From positions 1-64,000 of the forward strand of contig JBEKSD010000003.1 of assembly GCA_049517335.1 (NCBI GenBank): a stretch of DNA of 64,000 bases, given 5' to 3'. The notes beneath the pieces are model-generated. The model was given only the letters and a program-made list of their open reading frames with translations. It was not told where the DNA came from and made no database searches. A program made the translations under genes and the position numbers. This DNA comes from Candidatus Omnitrophota bacterium. GTDB lineage: Bacteria > Omnitrophota > Gorgyraeia > Gygaellales > Profunditerraquicolaceae. Each line of letters begins with the position of its first letter. The stretch's first letter is position 1. Of the stretch, positions 373 through 40,394 are shown one piece after another.

Positions 373-444
373 TGCCGAGGAGAAGAATCGGACTTCCCAC
401 GCCGGCCTTTTCAGGGCCGCGCTCTACCACTGAGCTACCTCGGC
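373..444 (-). tRNA. tRNA-Phe (GAA); CCA not encoded; non-canonical T-loop
   Basis: Reverse complement folds as GCCGAGG TA GCTC AGTGGTA GAGC G CGGCC CTGAAAA GGCCG GCGTG GGAAG TCCGATT CTTCT CCTCGGC A. Confidence 0.9.
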
Positions 445-4416: not shown

Positions 4417-6456
4417 TTATTCATTAATCACCTGCATAATTTTATCTAAATTCCTGCGTGCCTCTTCCTCTCCTCTTTTGGCGAATTCTTTTGAGCGGTG
4501 CAACTGCAGCCAATTCAGCCCGGAAGTGTCCGGATGCAGGACCACATCCGCAAGGAGCGCTTCCTTCAAAGCTACTTCCGACTGTAATATCTCCACACTG
4601 CTGAATATTAAGTCAAGTATATTGCTCTTAAAAGCATTTTTAATCTGCTCTTTAAAACTGAACCACCGCCTCTTCTTCAGTTCCTGCGGCAGGGCCGTTG
4701 TAATCTCTTCTTTTATTTTAGTATACTGGCGCATGATGTCATTCCGGGAAGGGGTTACGTTTACCGCGATAATCTTCTTCACTCCCATCTTAATCAGCGG
4801 CTCCGTAGGAAGCGGGTTTATAATACCTCCATCAACAAGCAGTTCATTCTTGAATTTAAAAGGCATAAAAACTCCAGGCATGGCACAACTGGCCATAATC
4901 GCGTCAACCAGCAGCCCCCTGTCAAAAACCCGGGGCTCTTTTCTCTTTATGTCGCTTGCGATTACTTTTAACGGTAGTGTAACGTCATAGAAAGTTTTAT
5001 TACCAAGATGTTTTTTCAAAAAGCGCTGCAATTTATCCCCTTTTAAAAAACCCAAACGCGGAAAAGTAAAATCAACCAGGCCCCATATGCTTTTCGGCTC
5101 ACTAAACTCAGCCGTTATCTCCAATATTTCAGCTGATGACTTCCCGGTGACCCATAAAGCGGCAATAATTGCGCCCATGCTTGAGCCGGCGATAACATCT
5201 ATGGGGATTTTCTCCTCTTCAATAACCTTCAGTACGCCTATGTGGCAGAAACCGTAACCCACGCCGACTCCTAAAACAAGCCCGACAAGAGTATCGCCTA
5301 ATGTGCGCGCTATTCTCCTGACCGCTTTAGAGTATTCGCAGTCCGGGTCATCCAGAACTAGCCTACCTCCGGACTCAAAATCAATTTTAGGCAAAGTAGC
5401 AAATACGCCTCTATCCAGGACCTCAACCTGCTCTTCGTGAGAGAGGCGCGATAGTTTATATTCGTTAATAATGATTTTTATCTTTTCAGGATTAAAATTA
5501 AATTCATTTTCAAGACGCTTCACTAACTTGTGCGTGCTGTTTAAATCAAGGGGGTCAGGGCTGGTCAATAACTGGATTAAATCCGACTGGTTCAAAATGC
5601 TGAAAATTACCTTGTCCATTGAAGAAGACAGGTCCAGGACAATATAGTGGTAATCATTGACCAGTTGGCTTAAGAGTTCAATAAAAACTCCGATACAACG
5701 TTCATCTTCGCCCTGATAATGAAAACAGGCAAGGTCTATTCCGGAGTTATCCCTTAAGATGAAATCAACTATTCCTCTCGGATTATCCGCATCCGGCCCA
5801 AAAAGCCTGAATACCCGCGGCTCCGTAATCCCCAAGCGTAGAGGTAGGGTATGCGTTTTATCAAATGGAGCGATATCCAGTATAATCACCGACTTATGCG
5901 TCTCTTTCTTTAGGCTTAAAGCGATATTTAAGGCATAAACTGTTTTGCCCGCCTGAGAATAAGAACTGAATACCGATAAGACCGTACTTTCAAAGATACT
6001 CTTGCGATGGGTGTCTTTACGTTTCAGGCGCCGGGATAATGTCCGGCTCAAGTCTATAGCTAAAGCGGGGATCTTTCTGATGATAGAGTCAAAATCCCCC
6101 TTTTTTATCATAAGCAGCGCGCAATCATTTATCGCTTTCGCGGTAACCGAATGCGGCTCATTAGTTAAGAGCGAAATCATCCCGAAATATTTCCCGCGGT
6201 GCAGGTATTCTAGAATTTTCTTTGTACCGGATTCATCCTGAACATATATCTCGACCCGGCCGAGGATCAGGCAATACAATGCGTTCGGAGGAGAGCCTTC
6301 CTCATAAATAACCTGCCCCTTTTTGAACTCTTGAATAACAGAATTATTTTTGATAATATTACGCTGGAAGGGAGTAAGGTTTGTAAAAAGCGGGATTTCG
6401 TTTAAAATAACCTCTTTATTTATATCCATCATGCTTATAACCTGCTCGTCCTGCAA
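4417..6456 (-). CDS. cNMP-binding / ParA-MinD-like / patatin phospholipase fusion (NTE family)
   Basis: N-terminal cNMP-binding domain (YFGMISLL..EPHSVTA); P-loop-like SQAGKT; patatin GSSMG and DGG. Confidence 0.85.
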   Translation of the reverse strand: MQDEQVISMMDINKEVILNEIPLFTNLTPFQRNIIKNNSVIQEFKKGQVIYEEGSPPNALYCLILGRVEIYVQDESGTKKILEYLHRGKYFGMISLLTNEPHSVTAKAINDCALLMIKKGDFDSIIRKIPALAIDLSRTLSRRLKRKDTHRKSIFESTVLSVFSSYSQAGKTVYALNIALSLKKETHKSVIILDIAPFDKTHTLPLRLGITEPRVFRLFGPDADNPRGIVDFILRDNSGIDLACFHYQGEDERCIGVFIELLSQLVNDYHYIVLDLSSSMDKVIFSILNQSDLIQLLTSPDPLDLNSTHKLVKRLENEFNFNPEKIKIIINEYKLSRLSHEEQVEVLDRGVFATLPKIDFESGGRLVLDDPDCEYSKAVRRIARTLGDTLVGLVLGVGVGYGFCHIGVLKVIEEEKIPIDVIAGSSMGAIIAALWVTGKSSAEILEITAEFSEPKSIWGLVDFTFPRLGFLKGDKLQRFLKKHLGNKTFYDVTLPLKVIASDIKRKEPRVFDRGLLVDAIMASCAMPGVFMPFKFKNELLVDGGIINPLPTEPLIKMGVKKIIAVNVTPSRNDIMRQYTKIKEEITTALPQELKKRRWFSFKEQIKNAFKSNILDLIFSSVEILQSEVALKEALLADVVLHPDTSGLNWLQLHRSKEFAKRGEEEARRNLDKIMQVINE

Positions 6457-7649
6457 ACTTCAGCAAATTTTTTACCACTCTCCCTGACCCGACGCTGAAA
6501 GGTATTATAATCCACTTCTACCAGACCAAACCGGGGCCGAAACCCTTTATCCCACTCAAAATTATCCAATAACGACCAATAAATATAACCCAAAACTTTT
6601 GCGCCTCCAGCCATTGCCTTATGCATATTCTCCAAGTGCTCCTTTATATAATCCCACCTGATATTGTCGTCGGCTGTACATATCCCGTTTTCAAGGACAA
6701 ATATGGGGAGCTTAAAGTTTTTCAGTTCAGTCAATAAATCATACAGGCCCTCCGGGTAAATATCCCAGCCCATATCGTTCTTTTTTAAATTACTATGCCC
6801 GCTTTCACAGTTATCGCTTAATAAGTGCATAAAACCCCATTTTTTTACCTCTACCAGCCCGCGCGTATAGTAATTAAGGCCGATATAATCAAGGGAGTGC
6901 CGAAAAAGGAGTATCCTGATAATGTCGCGGTTAAACAACTTATCGCGCAGATATGCCCCGGCTTTATCCTTAAGGTTATTCCGGTAGGGGACAAAATCCT
7001 GCATATTGTGGGCAATACTTATCAGGGGCTTAGGGAGGTTTTCCTCCTTATAAATTTTATGGATTAGGCGGTATACCGCAACATGACCTTTAATGATGTT
7101 ACAAAAAACTTTTCTCCCCGTAAAGAATGATTTTTTCTGCGGCGGCCATGCGCCTAAGACATAGGAATGATATAGATAAACCATCGGCTCATTGATGGTC
7201 ACCCAGAAACGGACGTCTTTTTTTAAGGCATTTACGATCTTTTCGCAAAAACGCCTGAAATACACGACGGCCTTAGGGTTCTCCCAGCCTCCGGTATCAG
7301 CAAACCAGATGGGGTTAGTAAAGTGGTGCAGAGTAACAATGGGCTCAATACCGCGTGACTTTAAAGCAAGGATGACATCCTGATAATGCCGGATTTCTTC
7401 TTTAGAGAATTTGCCTTCTTCAGGCTCAATGCGCGCCCACTCTACGGATAAACGGTGGGCATTATGCCCTAACCTTAAAACAATGTCAAAATCTTCCCTA
7501 AAAAGCTCGTAGTGGCGGCAGGCAGGGCCTGATTGAATAACGCCTGCCCTCTTCTCCCAAGCCCACCAGTCGCTGTTGGAATTACCTCCTTCAACCTGAT
7601 AAGCCGAAGTTGCCGCGCCCCAGAGGAAATCTTTAGGAAATTCAATCAT
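6435..7649 (-). CDS. Glycoside hydrolase family 1 (beta-glucosidase/galactosidase)
   Basis: FLWGAATSAYQVEG, TINEP, LENG and WSLLDNFEW. Confidence 0.95.
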   Translation of the reverse strand: MIEFPKDFLWGAATSAYQVEGGNSNSDWWAWEKRAGVIQSGPACRHYELFREDFDIVLRLGHNAHRLSVEWARIEPEEGKFSKEEIRHYQDVILALKSRGIEPIVTLHHFTNPIWFADTGGWENPKAVVYFRRFCEKIVNALKKDVRFWVTINEPMVYLYHSYVLGAWPPQKKSFFTGRKVFCNIIKGHVAVYRLIHKIYKEENLPKPLISIAHNMQDFVPYRNNLKDKAGAYLRDKLFNRDIIRILLFRHSLDYIGLNYYTRGLVEVKKWGFMHLLSDNCESGHSNLKKNDMGWDIYPEGLYDLLTELKNFKLPIFVLENGICTADDNIRWDYIKEHLENMHKAMAGGAKVLGYIYWSLLDNFEWDKGFRPRFGLVEVDYNTFQRRVRESGKKFAEVCRTSRL

Positions 7650-7717
7650 AGCGATTATATTATAGCATTAACCCAAAAATTTGCATTAGAAAATAAAAAA
7701 CTGCCAAAATCTAAGTT

Positions 7718-7758
7718 AAAAAATGGAGCCCGACTAAGGCTTTAGCCTTTAGGGCTCC
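7718..7758 (-). terminator. Intrinsic terminator
   Basis: GGAGCCC..GGC TAAA GCC..GGGCTCC followed by ATTTTTT on the minus strand. Confidence 0.65.
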
Positions 7759-7877
7759 TAAGGGCGGAATACTCTGCGATCTACCAGCGAGATAAGTAGT
7801 TCTCCGAGTACAAAAAATCCCAACAAAAAATTTTGCTGGGATTTTTTAAGATAAGCCGATAAGGATGCGCCAAACAT
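7758..7877 (-). CDS. Possible 39-aa small ORF directly behind the riboswitch (MFGASLSAYLKKSQQNFLLGFFVLGELLISLVDRRVFRP)
   Basis: Translated by hand; GGAG/AAGGA upstream of the ATG; stop coincides with the terminator stem; but the ORF spans another terminator. Confidence 0.3.
   Translation of the reverse strand: MFGASLSAYLKKSQQNFLLGFFVLGELLISLVDRRVFRP
7812..7847 (-). terminator. Intrinsic terminator in the riboswitch expression region
   Basis: AAAAAATCCCAGCAAAA / TTTTGTTGGGATTTTTT; the G-U wobble works on the minus strand. Confidence 0.7.
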
Positions 7878-7895
7878 GCTTCCTTATCTCTCCAC

Positions 7896-7993
7896 TTCGG
7901 CAACCCAGCCACCATATCAGCCCTTGTTGCCTGGCTGACTACAGGTCTGTGGCTTTGCGTCCCCGCCTTTCAGCGGGTTTACCCTTATCGGCT
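7896..7993 (-). ncRNA. c-di-GMP-I (GEMM-I) riboswitch
   Basis: AAGGGTAAACCCGCT-GAAA-GGCGGGGACGCAAAGCCAC...ATGGTGGCTGGGTTGCCGAA; G at the position equivalent to G20, which indicates c-di-GMP rather than cGAMP. Confidence 0.9.
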
Positions 7994-7999
7994 ATAATA

Positions 8000-8028
8000 A
8001 GTATATAATAAAATTCCCGCTATTTCAA
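8000..8028 (-). promoter_or_regulatory. sigma70 promoter for the riboswitch transcript
   Basis: TTGAAA-17-TATACT, about 6 nt before the aptamer 5' end. Confidence 0.7.
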
Positions 8029-8039
8029 GTAAGCTAAGC

Positions 8040-8483
8040 CTAATTTTTCTTAGGCTCGGGCGTAAGATGCACCTTTAATAATTCCCATGTCTTGGGGCCG
8101 ACTTTTCCGTCTGCCTTCAGGTTATTCGCCTTCTGGAACGCTTCAATTGCCTTTTTTGTCTTAGCGCCTGTCTTACCGTCAACTTTTCCGGTGTAAAAGC
8201 CCGCATTCATTAAAGCAGTCTGGATGTCAGTCACTGAAGGTTTGAAAGGCCCTGCCGGGGGTAAAGGCTCTAATTTTGCCGCTTCAGTTACAGGGGTTGC
8301 CGGTTGTTGGACCGCCTTTACTGCAGGGGCTTTTGCTTCTGTGCCAACTGGGCTTGCGACGTTAACCGTGCTCATTGCCTCCATGGTCATTGGTTCCTGG
8401 GCTTCCTCTGCCTGTTTCTTTGCGCAGCCAAAAACTCCAAACACAAACATTGATGCAGCCAATAAAACCAAAAACTTCTTCAT
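8040..8483 (-). CDS. Lipoprotein with C-terminal peptidoglycan-binding domain
   Basis: Lipobox VFGC; IQTAL..AGFY.GKVDG..G..TKKAI.AFQ..N.L.ADGKVGPKTW. Confidence 0.9.
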   Translation of the reverse strand: MKKFLVLLAASMFVFGVFGCAKKQAEEAQEPMTMEAMSTVNVASPVGTEAKAPAVKAVQQPATPVTEAAKLEPLPPAGPFKPSVTDIQTALMNAGFYTGKVDGKTGAKTKKAIEAFQKANNLKADGKVGPKTWELLKVHLTPEPKKN

Positions 8484-9265: not shown

Positions 9266-9595
9266 TTACTGATTTTTATCTTCAGCGTATTTATCGCAGA
9301 CTGAATTTTTGCATAACCTGACTCCCGACTTATGAGCGCTCCTTGCCAAAACATGGGCGGAGACAGGAGCGGTTAATAGCAGAAATAAAATACACAGGAG
9401 CGCCTTGACTCCGGTAGGGCTAAAGCCTTTGTACAGGAATAAACCAAACAATATGCTTGATGTGCCCAGGGTCACGCACTTAATTGAGGAATGCAGGCGG
9501 TTGTAAATGTCCGGGAACCTGAGCAGCCCTAAGCAGCCGAAGAAATCAAACGCAATGCCGGTTATTATAAAAACAAAGCCTATTTTCTCAATCAT
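9266..9595 (-). CDS. mnhG: Mrp/Mnh antiporter subunit G
   Basis: GLLRFPDIYNRLH...TLG and LTAPVSAHVLARSA. Confidence 0.9.
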   Translation of the reverse strand: MIEKIGFVFIITGIAFDFFGCLGLLRFPDIYNRLHSSIKCVTLGTSSILFGLFLYKGFSPTGVKALLCILFLLLTAPVSAHVLARSAHKSGVRLCKNSVCDKYAEDKNQ

Positions 9596-9947
9596 CGAAG
9601 TGTTTTCCCTCCAGGTATTTTCCCAAAGCGAGTATTGAGATGAAACTTTGTAAGGCCCAGGCAATACCAATGTCAATATACCAGTCTCTTCCCGTAGGGA
9701 TTCCCAAAATGGCGCAAAACCCTAAAATCAGTATTCCGAATATATCCAGCGCCGCTGCCCGGTCCGAAGGAGTGGGGCCTAAAAGTATACGCAAAAAACA
9801 AAGGCTCGCGGACAAGAGCATCACGAAAAGAGCCTTTTCTAAGAAAACCGACTGCCACTCAAGAAGCGAAGGCAGATGCAAAAATAATATCACCCCAAGA
9901 ACAGAAACGATAATCACCAACCCTATTAACCAGCGCAGCCTTTTCAT
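9588..9947 (-). CDS. mnhF: Mrp/Mnh subunit F
   Basis: RILLGPTPSDRAAALD. Confidence 0.85.
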   Translation of the reverse strand: MKRLRWLIGLVIIVSVLGVILFLHLPSLLEWQSVFLEKALFVMLLSASLCFLRILLGPTPSDRAAALDIFGILILGFCAILGIPTGRDWYIDIGIAWALQSFISILALGKYLEGKHFDD

Positions 9948-10441
9948 TCAAAAATCCTCATCAATACCTTTTCGAACTTCTCAACTATAATTTTGGTAGC
10001 CTTGTCAATATCCTGCGATTCCACATTAACCCAGTGCACATAAAGAAACCCTTTCTCCTTATCTATATCCACCGTCATGGTTCCAGGGTTTAAAGTAATG
10101 GTATTCGCCAGGAAGGTCAGGCCTGCATCCGACTTTAACCTGCTTTTCACCCTGACTATTCCCGGCCTCATAGGTAAATCCGGATGAATTACCCTCCAGG
10201 TTCCGTCCAGATTAGCCTTAAAACATTCCCAGATAAATAACGGGATATAATACAAAAACCAGAGATAGCGTTTCCAATTCTTTAATACCGCCGCTTTCTT
10301 CTCCAGGAACCCGGAAGTTAAGAATAGAATAAGCGTGCTTATAATCGCCGCATTAATCAAATTCGGCAAATTAAGCGACCAGCTTAAGATAAGCCAAGTG
10401 ATAAAATATAATATAAAAAATATGTAACGTAAATGGATCAT
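9944..10441 (-). CDS. mnhE: Mrp/Mnh subunit E
   Basis: PGIVRV and LANTITLNPGTMTVD. Confidence 0.9.
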   Translation of the reverse strand: MIHLRYIFFILYFITWLILSWSLNLPNLINAAIISTLILFLTSGFLEKKAAVLKNWKRYLWFLYYIPLFIWECFKANLDGTWRVIHPDLPMRPGIVRVKSRLKSDAGLTFLANTITLNPGTMTVDIDKEKGFLYVHWVNVESQDIDKATKIIVEKFEKVLMRIFE

Positions 10442-11928
10442 TTTACCGCCGCTAAAATTAAGTCTTTATATTTTACCCCGGAAACCAAAACATCAACTGC
10501 CTGTGTAAGGAAGACCCTCACTGGAGAAAGCAGTAACAAACCGCCGGCAACGCATATAAGAGCCAAAACAGTTGTGGCTAATTTCATGGACAGGAGAGGT
10601 TCTTTAATATCGCTTTTGTATTCCGGAGCCTTGCCGAAGAATATTGCATTTTGGAATTTCAAATAATAAACCAGCGTCACGATACTCACCAGGACCGCGA
10701 TTACCGAAAACCCGATGTAACCCGCCTGAATGGCGGCTATAATAATAATTAACTTACTCCAGAACCCGGCAAATGGCGGAATACCCGAAATACTCATTGC
10801 CCCGATTAAGTTTGTGTTTGAGGTAAGGGGCAGTTTGGAATTAAGGGCTCCTAATTTATCCAATTCGCGCCTTCCGGTCGCATGTTCAATTGAGCCGGCA
10901 TTTAAGAAAAGCAGCGACTTTGCGCTTGCGTGGTTAAAAAGATGAAAAACCCCTCCCAGAATGGCTAACGGCGTACCTACACCTAAAGCAAAAATAATAT
11001 ACCCCAGCTGGCTGATGGTTGAATAGGCAAGCATCCTTTTTATGTCATTCTGGGATACTGCCAAGAGCGCCCCCACTGCCATAGAAATAATCCCGAATGC
11101 CATAAGGGCTTGTAATATTTTATCCGTAACACCTATAATATTAAAAAATATGCGCGAGATAACATATACACCGAGGGCTTTAATAAAGATGCCTGAGAGC
11201 ACCGCAGATACGGGCGTGGGTGCGGAAGAATGGGCGTCCGGAAGCCAGGCATGAAACGGTACAAGCGCGCTTTTTAAGCCGAATCCCGCAAGGAACAAAA
11301 CCGAAATAAACCCGATTAAGAATCCCTGTGGCTTTGCGGAAAGGACAGAAGCCATGTCGGACATATTCAGAGTAGAGGTATAGCCGTAAAGAAGGCCTAT
11401 GCCGAGCAGGATAAAAATTGAGGCGACTGCGCCCATTACCGCGTATTTAAACGAAGCCTCCAGATGTTCCGGCTCAAGCCCGAAAGTAACCAGAATGTAG
11501 GCGCAAATAGAAGCTATCTCAAGGAAAACATAGAGGTTAAACAAATCCCCGCTGATGATAACGCCGTTTATCCCCGCTAGCATCAGCATAAAAAGGGTAT
11601 AGAATTTCCATCTTCCGGTATAATGCTGCATATAGCCGGCCGAATAAATCAAGACAAGAAAAACCACTAAATTCACCACAACCAGCAGAAAAGATGTCAA
11701 CCCGTCGGCAACCAAAAGTATCCCTAACGGAAAATTCCAACCGCCTATTTTATAAACAATAACTTTATCTAACGCGGTTAATTGCGCGACTTTCAGGGAA
11801 ATGACGAGTAATATAAGACTGGCGCAATTCGCAATCAAATTTTCATGCTTCTTCATTAAGTTCCCCAAAAGTGCAGTCAGAAATGCAGCCAAAAGCGGAA
11901 TTACGGTAAGAAAAACCAGAAGCTTCAT
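10438..11928 (-). CDS. mnhD: Mrp/Mnh subunit D (antiporter-like)
   Basis: DLFNLYVFLEI, PFHAWLPDAH and KRMLAYSTISQLG. Confidence 0.9.
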   Translation of the reverse strand: MKLLVFLTVIPLLAAFLTALLGNLMKKHENLIANCASLILLVISLKVAQLTALDKVIVYKIGGWNFPLGILLVADGLTSFLLVVVNLVVFLVLIYSAGYMQHYTGRWKFYTLFMLMLAGINGVIISGDLFNLYVFLEIASICAYILVTFGLEPEHLEASFKYAVMGAVASIFILLGIGLLYGYTSTLNMSDMASVLSAKPQGFLIGFISVLFLAGFGLKSALVPFHAWLPDAHSSAPTPVSAVLSGIFIKALGVYVISRIFFNIIGVTDKILQALMAFGIISMAVGALLAVSQNDIKRMLAYSTISQLGYIIFALGVGTPLAILGGVFHLFNHASAKSLLFLNAGSIEHATGRRELDKLGALNSKLPLTSNTNLIGAMSISGIPPFAGFWSKLIIIIAAIQAGYIGFSVIAVLVSIVTLVYYLKFQNAIFFGKAPEYKSDIKEPLLSMKLATTVLALICVAGGLLLLSPVRVFLTQAVDVLVSGVKYKDLILAAVK

Positions 11929-39664: not shown

Positions 39665-39700
39665 AATAAAAACCCTTAATGCCAAAAGATTAAGGGTTTT
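39665..39700 (-). terminator. Terminator of the TPP riboswitch
   Basis: AAAACCCTTAAT / ATTAAGGGTTTT followed by TATTT. Confidence 0.75.
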
Positions 39701-39704
39701 ATAT

Positions 39705-39800
39705 TTTTCCCTACGCTGGCATTATCCAGATCAGGTTAAACAAGGGTAATCTGCTTACTTTAAGCAGAACTCTCAGGCTGTCTGACAACCTCCCCTTACT
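39705..39800 (-). ncRNA. TPP riboswitch
   Basis: AGGGG...CTGAGA...ACCC...AACCTGATCTGGATAATGCCAGCGTAGGGAA upstream of thiS. Confidence 0.95.
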
Positions 39801-39803
39801 TTT

Positions 39804-40394
39804 TTATTTTGAAATCACAAAAACCGCATTAAGAGCAAGAAGATTCGGCCAAAACCTAACCCTGCGCAATTTTCCAAGATTATACACCTGGAGAATCTTT
39901 ATATCTTTACTTTTACAATAATATTTAAAATCGCTGATACTCAAAAACCGGACGTTAGGAGTATCGTACCAGCGGTATGGTAAGGATTTCGTAATCGGGG
40001 CCTTGCCTTTAAAAAACATCATAAAGCGCGCCTTTATATGGGCAAAGTTAGAAAAGCCTATAATGACTTTCTTGCCTACGCGAAGCGTCTCCTCTATAAC
40101 AAAGTCAATTTTTTTGACCTCCTGCATACTCTGATTCAAAATCACGTAATCAAAGTTTTTATCCGGATATTCAGTCAAGCCACTGTCAATATCGCTTTGA
40201 AAAACGCTCAAGCCTTTTTCAACGCAATCATGGATAGCCTCATCGTCAAGCTCAATACCCTGCACAATCGCATTTTTCTTTTCTGAGAGCAAAAGAATAA
40301 GGTCTCCGTTGCCGCAGCCTAAATCCAGAACGCGCGACCCGGGTTCAATAATATTAGTAATAACCTTATAATCTAACCTTATTTTTTCAGACAA
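39804..40394 (-). CDS. metW: Methionine biosynthesis protein MetW
   Basis: VLDLGCGNG and WYDTPN; follows metX. Confidence 0.9.
   Translation of the reverse strand: MSEKIRLDYKVITNIIEPGSRVLDLGCGNGDLILLLSEKKNAIVQGIELDDEAIHDCVEKGLSVFQSDIDSGLTEYPDKNFDYVILNQSMQEVKKIDFVIEETLRVGKKVIIGFSNFAHIKARFMMFFKGKAPITKSLPYRWYDTPNVRFLSISDFKYYCKSKDIKILQVYNLGKLRRVRFWPNLLALNAVFVISK

Follow-up and report, generated by a model that had tools for sequence, protein, structure and literature searches.

The closest described relatives of the element studied here are the terminator-type riboswitches of the cyclic di-GMP (c-di-GMP) class I family (c-di-GMP-I or GEMM-I; RF01051), and a second precedent is merRNA of Bdellovibrio bacteriovorus, a c-di-GMP-I riboswitch RNA of 445 nucleotides (nt) that is massively expressed and is known only from Bdellovibrio (PMC3627812). 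Here, we describe a c-di-GMP-I unit of an order of Omnitrophota by way of its copy at positions 7718..8028, minus strand, of a 64,000-nt stretch, here called the window, of a Candidatus Omnitrophota bacterium (GCA_049517335.1, contig JBEKSD010000003.1, positions 1-64,000); all coordinates of the unit below refer to the minus strand of the window. As in terminator-type members of RF01051, the aptamer has a three-helix junction with canonical junction nucleotides and a GAAA-capped helix P1a, and a strand is predicted to switch between helix P1 and a terminator helix. Unlike in those members, the 3' arm of the putative terminator is a perfect complement of the aptamer 5' strand, so that the closing helix spans the aptamer together with the first nucleotide of the RNA; a second, apparently constitutive terminator follows, and the downstream gene has its own promoter of leaderless type. 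The unit resembles merRNA in that the riboswitch is predicted to lie on a discrete RNA with no conserved open reading frame (ORF) as its cis target, and it differs from merRNA in having a clear predicted ligand-dependent switch and a fixed place before a GH1 glycoside hydrolase gene, and in being known from sequence alone. Like antisense-acting and other non-classical riboswitches, the units of five genomes face a convergent gene, where read-through could act only as antisense or by interference; unlike in those systems, the next gene in this window lies on the same strand. In the full-text literature on c-di-GMP riboswitches in Omnitrophica/Omnitrophota, the Omnitrophota part of which was covered by titles and the beginnings of abstracts, no report of such riboswitches was found, and the genomic layout around this canonical family member is conserved and unusual and has so far not been described.

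The best overall explanation, to which we give an even chance of being right, is a conserved unit in which the riboswitch would act as an ON switch at a first terminator (T0) followed by a second one (T1), with GH1 transcribed mainly from a promoter of its own (P2). The significance of this unit rests on its architecture across the family and not on the copy in the window, for which the outcome is chiefly a correction. The unit occurs in at least 91 Omnitrophota genomes and has a putatively regulated terminator and then a constitutive one; in about half of the units, the latter overlaps with the promoter of a gene that appears leaderless. Such a layout raises the prospect of a riboswitch that acts on a downstream promoter, or of a free-standing c-di-GMP-binding RNA in a second lineage besides Bdellovibrio, and it would link c-di-GMP to a glycosidase and to a cyclic nucleotide (cNMP)-binding patatin-like phospholipase in Omnitrophota. 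A predatory or host-dependent lifestyle is shared by some Omnitrophota with Bdellovibrio. The features of the unit, from its 5' end, are as follows.

8000..8028, minus strand: promoter P1, with TTGAAA at 8028-8023, a 17-nt spacer and TATACT at 8005-8000 (10 of 12 consensus matches).
7895..7993, minus strand: c-di-GMP-I (GEMM-I) aptamer, matched by the covariance models RF01051 and RF03167.
7993-7981, minus strand: strand A, the aptamer 5' strand, made up of helix P1, the ligand junction and the base of helix P1a.
7881..7888, minus strand: strand A', GAUAAGGA, a copy of part of the aptamer 5' strand that pairs with the 5' half of strand B.
7854..7866, minus strand: strand B, AUCCUUAUCGGCU, the putative switching strand, with A, A' or the aptamer 3' strand GCCGAA (7901-7896) as partners.
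7847..7853, minus strand: U-rich tract UAUCUUA directly after B; counting U7854, 5 of the 9 nt after C7855 are U.
7811..7848, minus strand: terminator T1, a core stem UCCCAGC/GUUGGGA with additional A-tract/U-tract pairs and U6 at 7817-7812 (-19.7 kcal/mol).
7718..7758, minus strand: terminator T2, GGAGCCC...GGGCUCC (7758-7725) followed by A and U6 at 7723-7718 (-20.5 kcal/mol).

All features that a sequence-only reading of this DNA had described (promoter, aptamer, hairpin, long-range pairing, ORF, terminators and a TG-n-TATAAT box) lie on the minus strand where it had placed them. Its assignment of a GEMM-I aptamer was borne out by a covariance-model scan, in which RF01051 scored 69.3 bits against a cut-off of 35 and matched model positions 1-87 in full at 7993-7896. 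The match first displayed by the Rfam clan filter was that of RF03167 (c-di-GMP-I-GGC), with 65.0 bits against a cut-off of 59 at 7992-7895. The name of this variant presumably refers to a G in place of the intercalating adenine. At the variant-defining column the alignment match line is blank and the aptamer has A where the variant has G: the stretch reads ACGCAAAGCC here and ACGCGAAGCC (...ACGCGAAgCc...) in the variant, and at the key position the variant consensus is GCGAAGCC whereas the aptamer has GCAAAGCC, as in canonical c-di-GMP-I. The aptamer is thus canonical c-di-GMP-I and not the GGC variant, and we take the RF03167 score to reflect the fold that the two models have in common. Helix P1 and two long helices, a GNRA-capped P1a and the conserved junction nucleotides are all present; the landmarks in the clan-model alignment are CCCGC-UGAAAG-GCGGG with its GAAA loop, AAGGG in the 5' junction, GCAAAGCC, and UUGCCGAA at the 3' end. 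The individual contact nucleotides are assumed to have the roles given to them in the literature. Seven GGDEF domains were found in the genome by profile matches, and c-di-GMP is the predicted ligand. A weak Rfam match to the trpB motif (32.7 bits, cut-off 59) was treated as chance. Two more c-di-GMP-I riboswitches are present in the genome (G000; here and below, genomes are cited by our own handles). In one of them (G000:C11:30648-30740, minus strand), the terminator is of the classical kind, with a 5' arm that repeats the P1a stem, and behind it comes a response-regulator gene led by a Shine-Dalgarno sequence (SD). About 250 nt downstream of the other (G000:C22:13553-13643, plus strand) lies a gene that has TATAAT 12 nt upstream of its ATG and lacks an SD.

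The conservation of the unit was examined in two steps. The first comparison, with 41 genomes of other genera only, one per genus, revealed c-di-GMP-I riboswitches in all 41. The GH1 orthologue was found in 33 of the 41, and in many of these genomes a riboswitch lies immediately before it. We then scanned 234 genomes of the same Omnitrophota order for the 16-nt 5' motif GCCGATAARGGNAAAC, with the reversed motif as control. The motif was present in 91 genomes, nearly always once per genome, against a single match for the control; in genus g24, it was present in 1 of 47 genomes. Of the 96 motif places taken, 89 were kept as units, namely those followed 100-300 nt downstream by an 11-mer with at most 2 mismatches to the reverse complement of the motif; counts out of 89 below refer to these, and the statistics of the helix between A and B (A:B) to 85 distinct units. 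Among the seven places dropped (G014, G019, G041, G065b, G086, G125b and G194), the first two are real units with diverged strands and the other five look like chance matches. Second matches occurred in G065 and G125 without the rest of the unit, and in G031, where the second match is a different riboswitch. Many orthologous aptamers, e.g., those of G016, G004, G009 and G012, carry insertions of 30-100 nt within P1a or P1b that lower or abolish the Rfam score while leaving strands A and B intact, so that covariance-model scans under-count the unit. Among the sequencing runs listed as carrying the locus, nine are of DNA and none is of RNA. At the level of the strain, contigs of four runs were compared: X2 is identical over 7500-8198 (0 differences), and the other runs gave matches only to the aptamer core of other riboswitches or to parts of GH1. 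Judged by these genomes, the c-di-GMP-I transcription unit is conserved within an Omnitrophota order and is essentially single-copy.

Promoter P1 belongs to this conserved core. A promoter scan of the region, with 3 promoter-like sites against 1.4 +/- 1.2 in shuffled sequences, is by itself weak evidence for it. Promoter P1 is kept in 86 of the 89 units, with TTGAAA in 78, the 17-nt spacer in 78 and TATACT in 68, and the end of the -10 box lies 6-8 nt before G1 in 84. Transcription is likely to start at A7993 or G7992, as judged from this spacing, which here puts A7993 seven nucleotides past the -10 box.

The pairing partners of strand B suggest how the unit may switch. As the sequence-only reading had pointed out, CCUUAUCGGCU can enter two mutually exclusive pairings, and both folds were recovered. 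In one of them, A pairs with B over 13 base pairs (bp; 7993-7981 with 7866-7854) at -20.9 kcal/mol, against -11.1 kcal/mol for A':B; in the other, GAUAAGGA (7888-7881) pairs with UCCUUAUC (7865-7858) in a hairpin of -12.2 kcal/mol that encloses AGC-AUG (ATG at 7877-7875). The fold of 7995-7720 has a z-score of -6.0, none of 200 shuffled sequences being as stable, and its minimum-free-energy structure contains A:B, T1 and T2. According to the Rfam structure line, A comprises helix P1, six unpaired junction nucleotides and the first two pairs of P1a, and because it covers all of these, A:B and the ligand-bound aptamer exclude each other. Across the 85 distinct units, positions 1-11 of A:B are paired in 82-85 and scarcely vary, and the terminal pair A0:B12 is formed in 65 (43.6 expected) by five pair types. 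The positions that flank the helix outward and inward are unpaired, giving it sharp ends, and its first pair takes in the first or second nucleotide of the RNA. At position 9, an A-to-G change in A is matched here by C in B (G-C), whereas most other units with this change keep U (G-U).

The local hairpin is kept as well. At least 4 of the 6 nt CCUUUA are paired locally in 65 of the 89 units (mean 4.10 paired nucleotides, 2.86 in shuffled sequences), and the partners of the 5' half of B (CCUUU) are varied, purine-rich sequences in the relatives. With A excluded from folding, at least 3 of the 4 nt CGGC are paired locally in 63 units; in 39 of these the partner is GCCG, which in most of the 39 is the aptamer's own 3' strand.

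We propose that a helix ending at B, together with the U-rich tract directly after it, forms the regulated terminator T0. At least 5 T are present in the 9 nt after B in 65 of the 89 units, and at least 7 in 27; here there are 5. In G029 and G111, T0 is the sole terminator before a gene with a normal SD, which encodes an 81-amino acid (aa) protein followed by uvrB in G029 and a PilZ protein in G111; this layout supports a functional T0.

T1, further downstream, is a second conserved element. In 70 of the 89 units, a CCCAAC...GUUGGG hairpin lies no more than 90 nt past B, and 81 have some hairpin with a U tract. Its stem shows compensatory variants (CCCGAC/GUCGGG and CCCGCG/CGCGGG) and is maintained while the loop, from 4 to more than 30 nt long, takes insertions of up to tens of nucleotides. 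A function of T1 as a protein operator was discarded on account of this variable loop length. A scan with a terminator consensus returned only the inner part of T2; it missed T1 because the A-tract of T1 pairs with its U-tract. T2, which comes after about 50 nt of unremarkable sequence behind T1, lies within some 135 nt of lineage-specific DNA that separate T1 from the GH1 promoter. Counted from TTGGGA in the 3' arm of T1, TATAAT is 153 nt away here; the distance is 15-19 nt in 48 of the 89 units and 17-18 nt in 39. Terminators beyond T1 are also present in G006 and G068. The stretch between T1 and P2 was considered as a mobile repeat and dropped, with no second copy in the genome. Elsewhere, at least 2 tandem copies of an element of about 66 nt lie between the riboswitch terminator and GH1 (L074, G009:C248), and an insertion of about 450 nt is found at the corresponding place in G010; by this comparison, the intergenic spot between T1 and GH1 is one that takes insertions repeatedly, as it did in the window. 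One further relative (L069, G021:C26) has a contig break inside T1 and ends in AGATCGGAAGAG, which we take to be sequencing-adapter sequence; this end is an assembly artefact in a public metagenome-assembled genome.

The genes and the second promoter that frame the unit are as follows.

8040..8483, minus strand: PG_binding_1 gene, upstream of promoter P1, with its stop at 8040.
7654..7667, minus strand: promoter P2, TG-c-TATAAT at 7667-7659 overlapping a second TATAAT at 7659-7654.
6435..7649, minus strand: GH1 glycoside hydrolase gene, 404 aa (Pfam Glyco_hydro_1, E 5.2e-88).
4417..6432, minus strand: cNMP-binding/AAA_31/patatin-like phospholipase gene of the 670-aa class, likely ATG at 6432, 2 nt past the GH1 stop.

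No terminator was found between the PG_binding_1 stop (8040) and promoter P1, and therefore transcripts of PG_binding_1 should also enter the riboswitch and T1. In relatives without the riboswitch (G015, G018, G002 and G023), T1 stands directly after the PG_binding gene. Downstream, the extended -10 box that the sequence-only reading had assigned to GH1 (TG-c-TATAAT) is conserved in relatives. The GH1 ATG (7649) lies 9 or 4 nt past the two P2 boxes and is preceded by no SD, a leaderless layout. Among the 70 units followed by GH1, a perfect TATAAT stands 3-14 nt before the GH1 start in 54, with TG in 48, and 36 of the 54 have a spacing of 7-8 nt; boxes of the P2 type are also found at GH1 genes without a riboswitch. 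GGTG before TATAAT was considered as the SD of a read-through mRNA and set aside, being about 14 nt from the AUG. Leaderless starts look common in this genome of 1.45 Mb (92% complete). TAnAAT is 2- to 3-fold enriched 6-9 nt before the first ATG of long ORFs over other spacings, and an SD-like tetramer is found at about 44% of long ORFs against 19% of random positions. The mRNA of GH1 may accordingly be read as leaderless from P2, and the cNMP/patatin gene is probably in one operon with it. About 50 genes look leaderless, often with TGnTATAAT boxes, examples being C4:62363(+), C8:56038(-) and C16:28227(+).

On the same strand, the next gene after the unit is GH1 in 70 of the 89 units (72 of the 96 places). 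The 19 units without GH1 next to them fall into several neighbour groups. In G112, G155, G156 and G226, a cNMP-binding/AAA_31 gene comes directly after the riboswitch-T1-TATAAT module and GH1 is missing there, and in G054 the cNMP-binding/AAA_31 gene is two genes further on. The next gene encodes PilZ in G111, is uvrB in G026 and encodes a PAS/GAF histidine kinase in G028; it is convergent in G024 (two copies), G048, G059, G115 and G222, and the units of G021 and G072 are at contig ends. The cNMP/patatin gene may be a more constant partner of the riboswitch than GH1. The sequence-only reading had called the unit self-contained, which is overstated for a unit that mostly sits directly upstream of GH1 and in some genomes before the cNMP/patatin gene.

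Taken together, these features suggest the following course of events. The RNA would start at A7993/G7992 from the sigma-70-type promoter P1 and fold into a canonical aptamer, with a three-way competition for B (AUCCUUAUCGGCU) as expression platform. Without c-di-GMP, B would pair with A in the 13-bp closing helix, or with GCCGAA, and in both cases the helix would abut the U-rich tract and form T0. With c-di-GMP, both aptamer strands would be held in helix P1 and the junction, and B would be left with A' (GAUAAGGA), which engages its 5' half; AUCGGC would then be an unpaired spacer before the U tract, and the polymerase would continue, the behavior of an ON switch. Polymerases past T0 would meet the constitutive T1 and here also T2, while a leaderless mRNA of GH1 and the cNMP/patatin gene would arise for the most part from the extended -10 promoter that these genes have of their own. 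With the weak U tract of T0, and T1 and T2 in series, this genome would therefore produce mostly a discrete, short RNA of about 140-185 nt with its 3' end near 7850 or 7812, and only a small regulated leak would reach the GH1 promoter region, from which the insertion with T2 has separated T1.

Several observations weigh against this proposal. The support for A:B consists mostly of invariance, real covariation being confined to the terminal pair and position 9. The A':B pairing is unusually long here (8 bp) and can stack on GCC:GGC, so that the ligand-bound fold may also abut the U-rich tract, which blurs the distinction between ON and OFF. The U tract of T0 is degenerate in about a quarter of the units, with 4 or fewer T in 9 nt in 24 of the 89, and it is weak in this copy (UUAUCUU). 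A conserved competitor of the 5' arm of T1 was sought in the aptamer 3' strand, in A' and in the region of B and the U tract, and none was found; UGGG/CCCA (4 contiguous bp, general) and GCUGGG/CCCAGC (6, in this genome only) were rejected as antiterminators. A constitutive T1 right behind T0 would leave little visible cis purpose for the switch, and three readings of its purpose are considered: a leak into the GH1 and cNMP/patatin operon, a free-standing RNA, or coupling to the promoter. Finally, the short ORF considered below might, with low probability, be a genus-specific de novo micropeptide, the genomes compared being those of other genera and of an identical strain.

The free-standing RNA is the alternative that survives best, as a tentative possibility. 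In this scenario, a stand-alone riboswitch RNA with no cis target, of the kind proposed for merRNA, would buffer or sponge c-di-GMP or act in trans, the ligand would set its 3' end (T0 or T1) and the segment exposed (A', or AUCGGC with the U tract), and the adjacency to GH1 would be inherited gene order. The strong, conserved promoter P1 of its own is consistent with such an RNA, as are the constitutive T1 of 70 of the 89 units and the extra terminators of this genome, G006 and G068. The gene behind the unit lacks an SD and has a promoter to itself, GH1 loci without a riboswitch keep both T1 and P2, and units with a convergent next gene have no target on the same strand; merRNA provides a precedent (PMC3627812). 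Against these points stand the same orientation and place before GH1 in 70 of the 89 units, with others before the cNMP/patatin gene or a PilZ gene, and the resemblance of G029 and G111 to ordinary cis regulators. An anti-aptamer helix of -20.9 kcal/mol would be a poor design for a sponge, and a PF17209 search of this 92%-complete genome gave no Hfq.

We consider it unlikely that the riboswitch controls the leaderless promoter instead of an mRNA leader. In that case, TTGGGA in the 3' arm of T1 would be the -35 box of P2, and polymerases let past T0 would stop on P2, where they would either occlude it, leading to repression, or re-initiate after termination. The 15-19 nt between TTGGGA and TATAAT in 48 of the 89 units (17-18 nt in 39) fit this arrangement, the T1-P2 module stays joined to the riboswitch when the next gene is cNMP/patatin instead of GH1, and the stem of T1 is conserved in sequence with a loop that tolerates insertions. 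The same spacing could, however, arise from the dense packing of terminators and promoters in genomes with a size of about 1.5 Mb. A -35 box is dispensable for an extended -10 promoter, and T1-P2 exists without the riboswitch; here, moreover, T2 lies in the 153 nt that separate T1 from P2, so that the coupling would be lost or weakened. No such system was found in the full-text literature, as far as titles and the beginnings of abstracts go. If true, this would be a coupling of riboswitch to promoter without described precedent, present in about half of the units and secondarily uncoupled in the window by the insertion of T2.

Slightly less probable again is an OFF switch, in which A:B would be the antiterminator and the local hairpin, formed when c-di-GMP holds the 5' strand, the terminator. 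The local fold (GCC..A':B..GGC) does end within a few nucleotides of the U-rich tract here, and in G064 and G111 the local hairpin takes up the whole 3' half of B. In most units, by contrast, the hairpin compatible with the ligand pairs only CCUUU and leaves AUCGGC as a spacer of 4-7 nt before the U tract, and where a local hairpin extends as far as the tract, its partner strand is GCCG of the aptamer 3' strand (39 units), which is part of the ligand-bound helix P1. We therefore retain the ON switch at T0 as the preferred direction.

The sequence-only reading had regarded a 39-codon ORF as the only target of the riboswitch, its options being a small membrane peptide, translation-dependent attenuation or an orphan RNA.

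7758..7877, minus strand: 39-codon ORF (MFGASLSAYLKK...), 39 aa, with its stop TAG (7760-7758) abutting T2; judged spurious.

The first two options fell with the lack of conservation of this ORF, an outcome that the sequence-only reading had itself named as refuting, and the third is still viable. No ATG is present in the 32 nt before B in 53 of the 89 units; in the remaining 36, ORFs range from 1 to 39 codons, with one in-frame fusion to GH1, and their frames relative to the conserved CCUUUAUCGGC are scattered (15/13/8). Among 14 leaders of other genera, no conservation of the ORF was found: G020, G003 and G013 lack any ORF of 8 or more codons that begins past the aptamer, and the others differ in start, length and frame. 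The 39-aa peptide belongs to no Pfam family, and an exhaustive HMMER search gave 0 matches among 1,835,955,588 representative proteins, a weak negative for a query that is short and derived from U tracts. The AUG lies in a hairpin loop whose sequence varies freely, the 3' half of the ORF and T2 lie in the stretch that relatives lack, and the hydrophobic residues come from reading the U and A tracts of T1, as the sequence-only reading had itself cautioned for the U tracts of the terminator. The ORF is most likely spurious and accidental, judged by this comparison, and the proposed micropeptide should not be annotated. That AUG 7877 is used after all, for a hydrophobic peptide repressed by c-di-GMP or for translation that melts T1 and T2 into GH1, is very improbable: AAGGA stands 3 nt before the AUG within the ligand-dependent hairpin and the stop codon abuts T2, but a spacing of 3 nt is too short for an SD, the ORF crosses a terminator of -19.7 kcal/mol, and neither its start nor its frame is conserved in the relatives.

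The complete genome of 'Candidatus Velamenicoccus archaeovorus' LiM gave no c-di-GMP-I match above the cut-off, and its GH1 is preceded by TGaTATAAT-N6-ATG without a riboswitch; LiM was accordingly ruled out as a model organism for the unit. Elsewhere in the window, the genes for Mrp-type Na+/H+ antiporter subunits (MrpF/PhaF, MNHE and Proton_antipo_M) lie upstream of the locus at 9588-11928, minus strand. A tRNA gene was found at 373-444, minus strand (Rfam tRNA, 61.2 bits), and a thiamine pyrophosphate (TPP) riboswitch at 39691-39806, minus strand, with 62.1 bits against a cut-off of 54.3.

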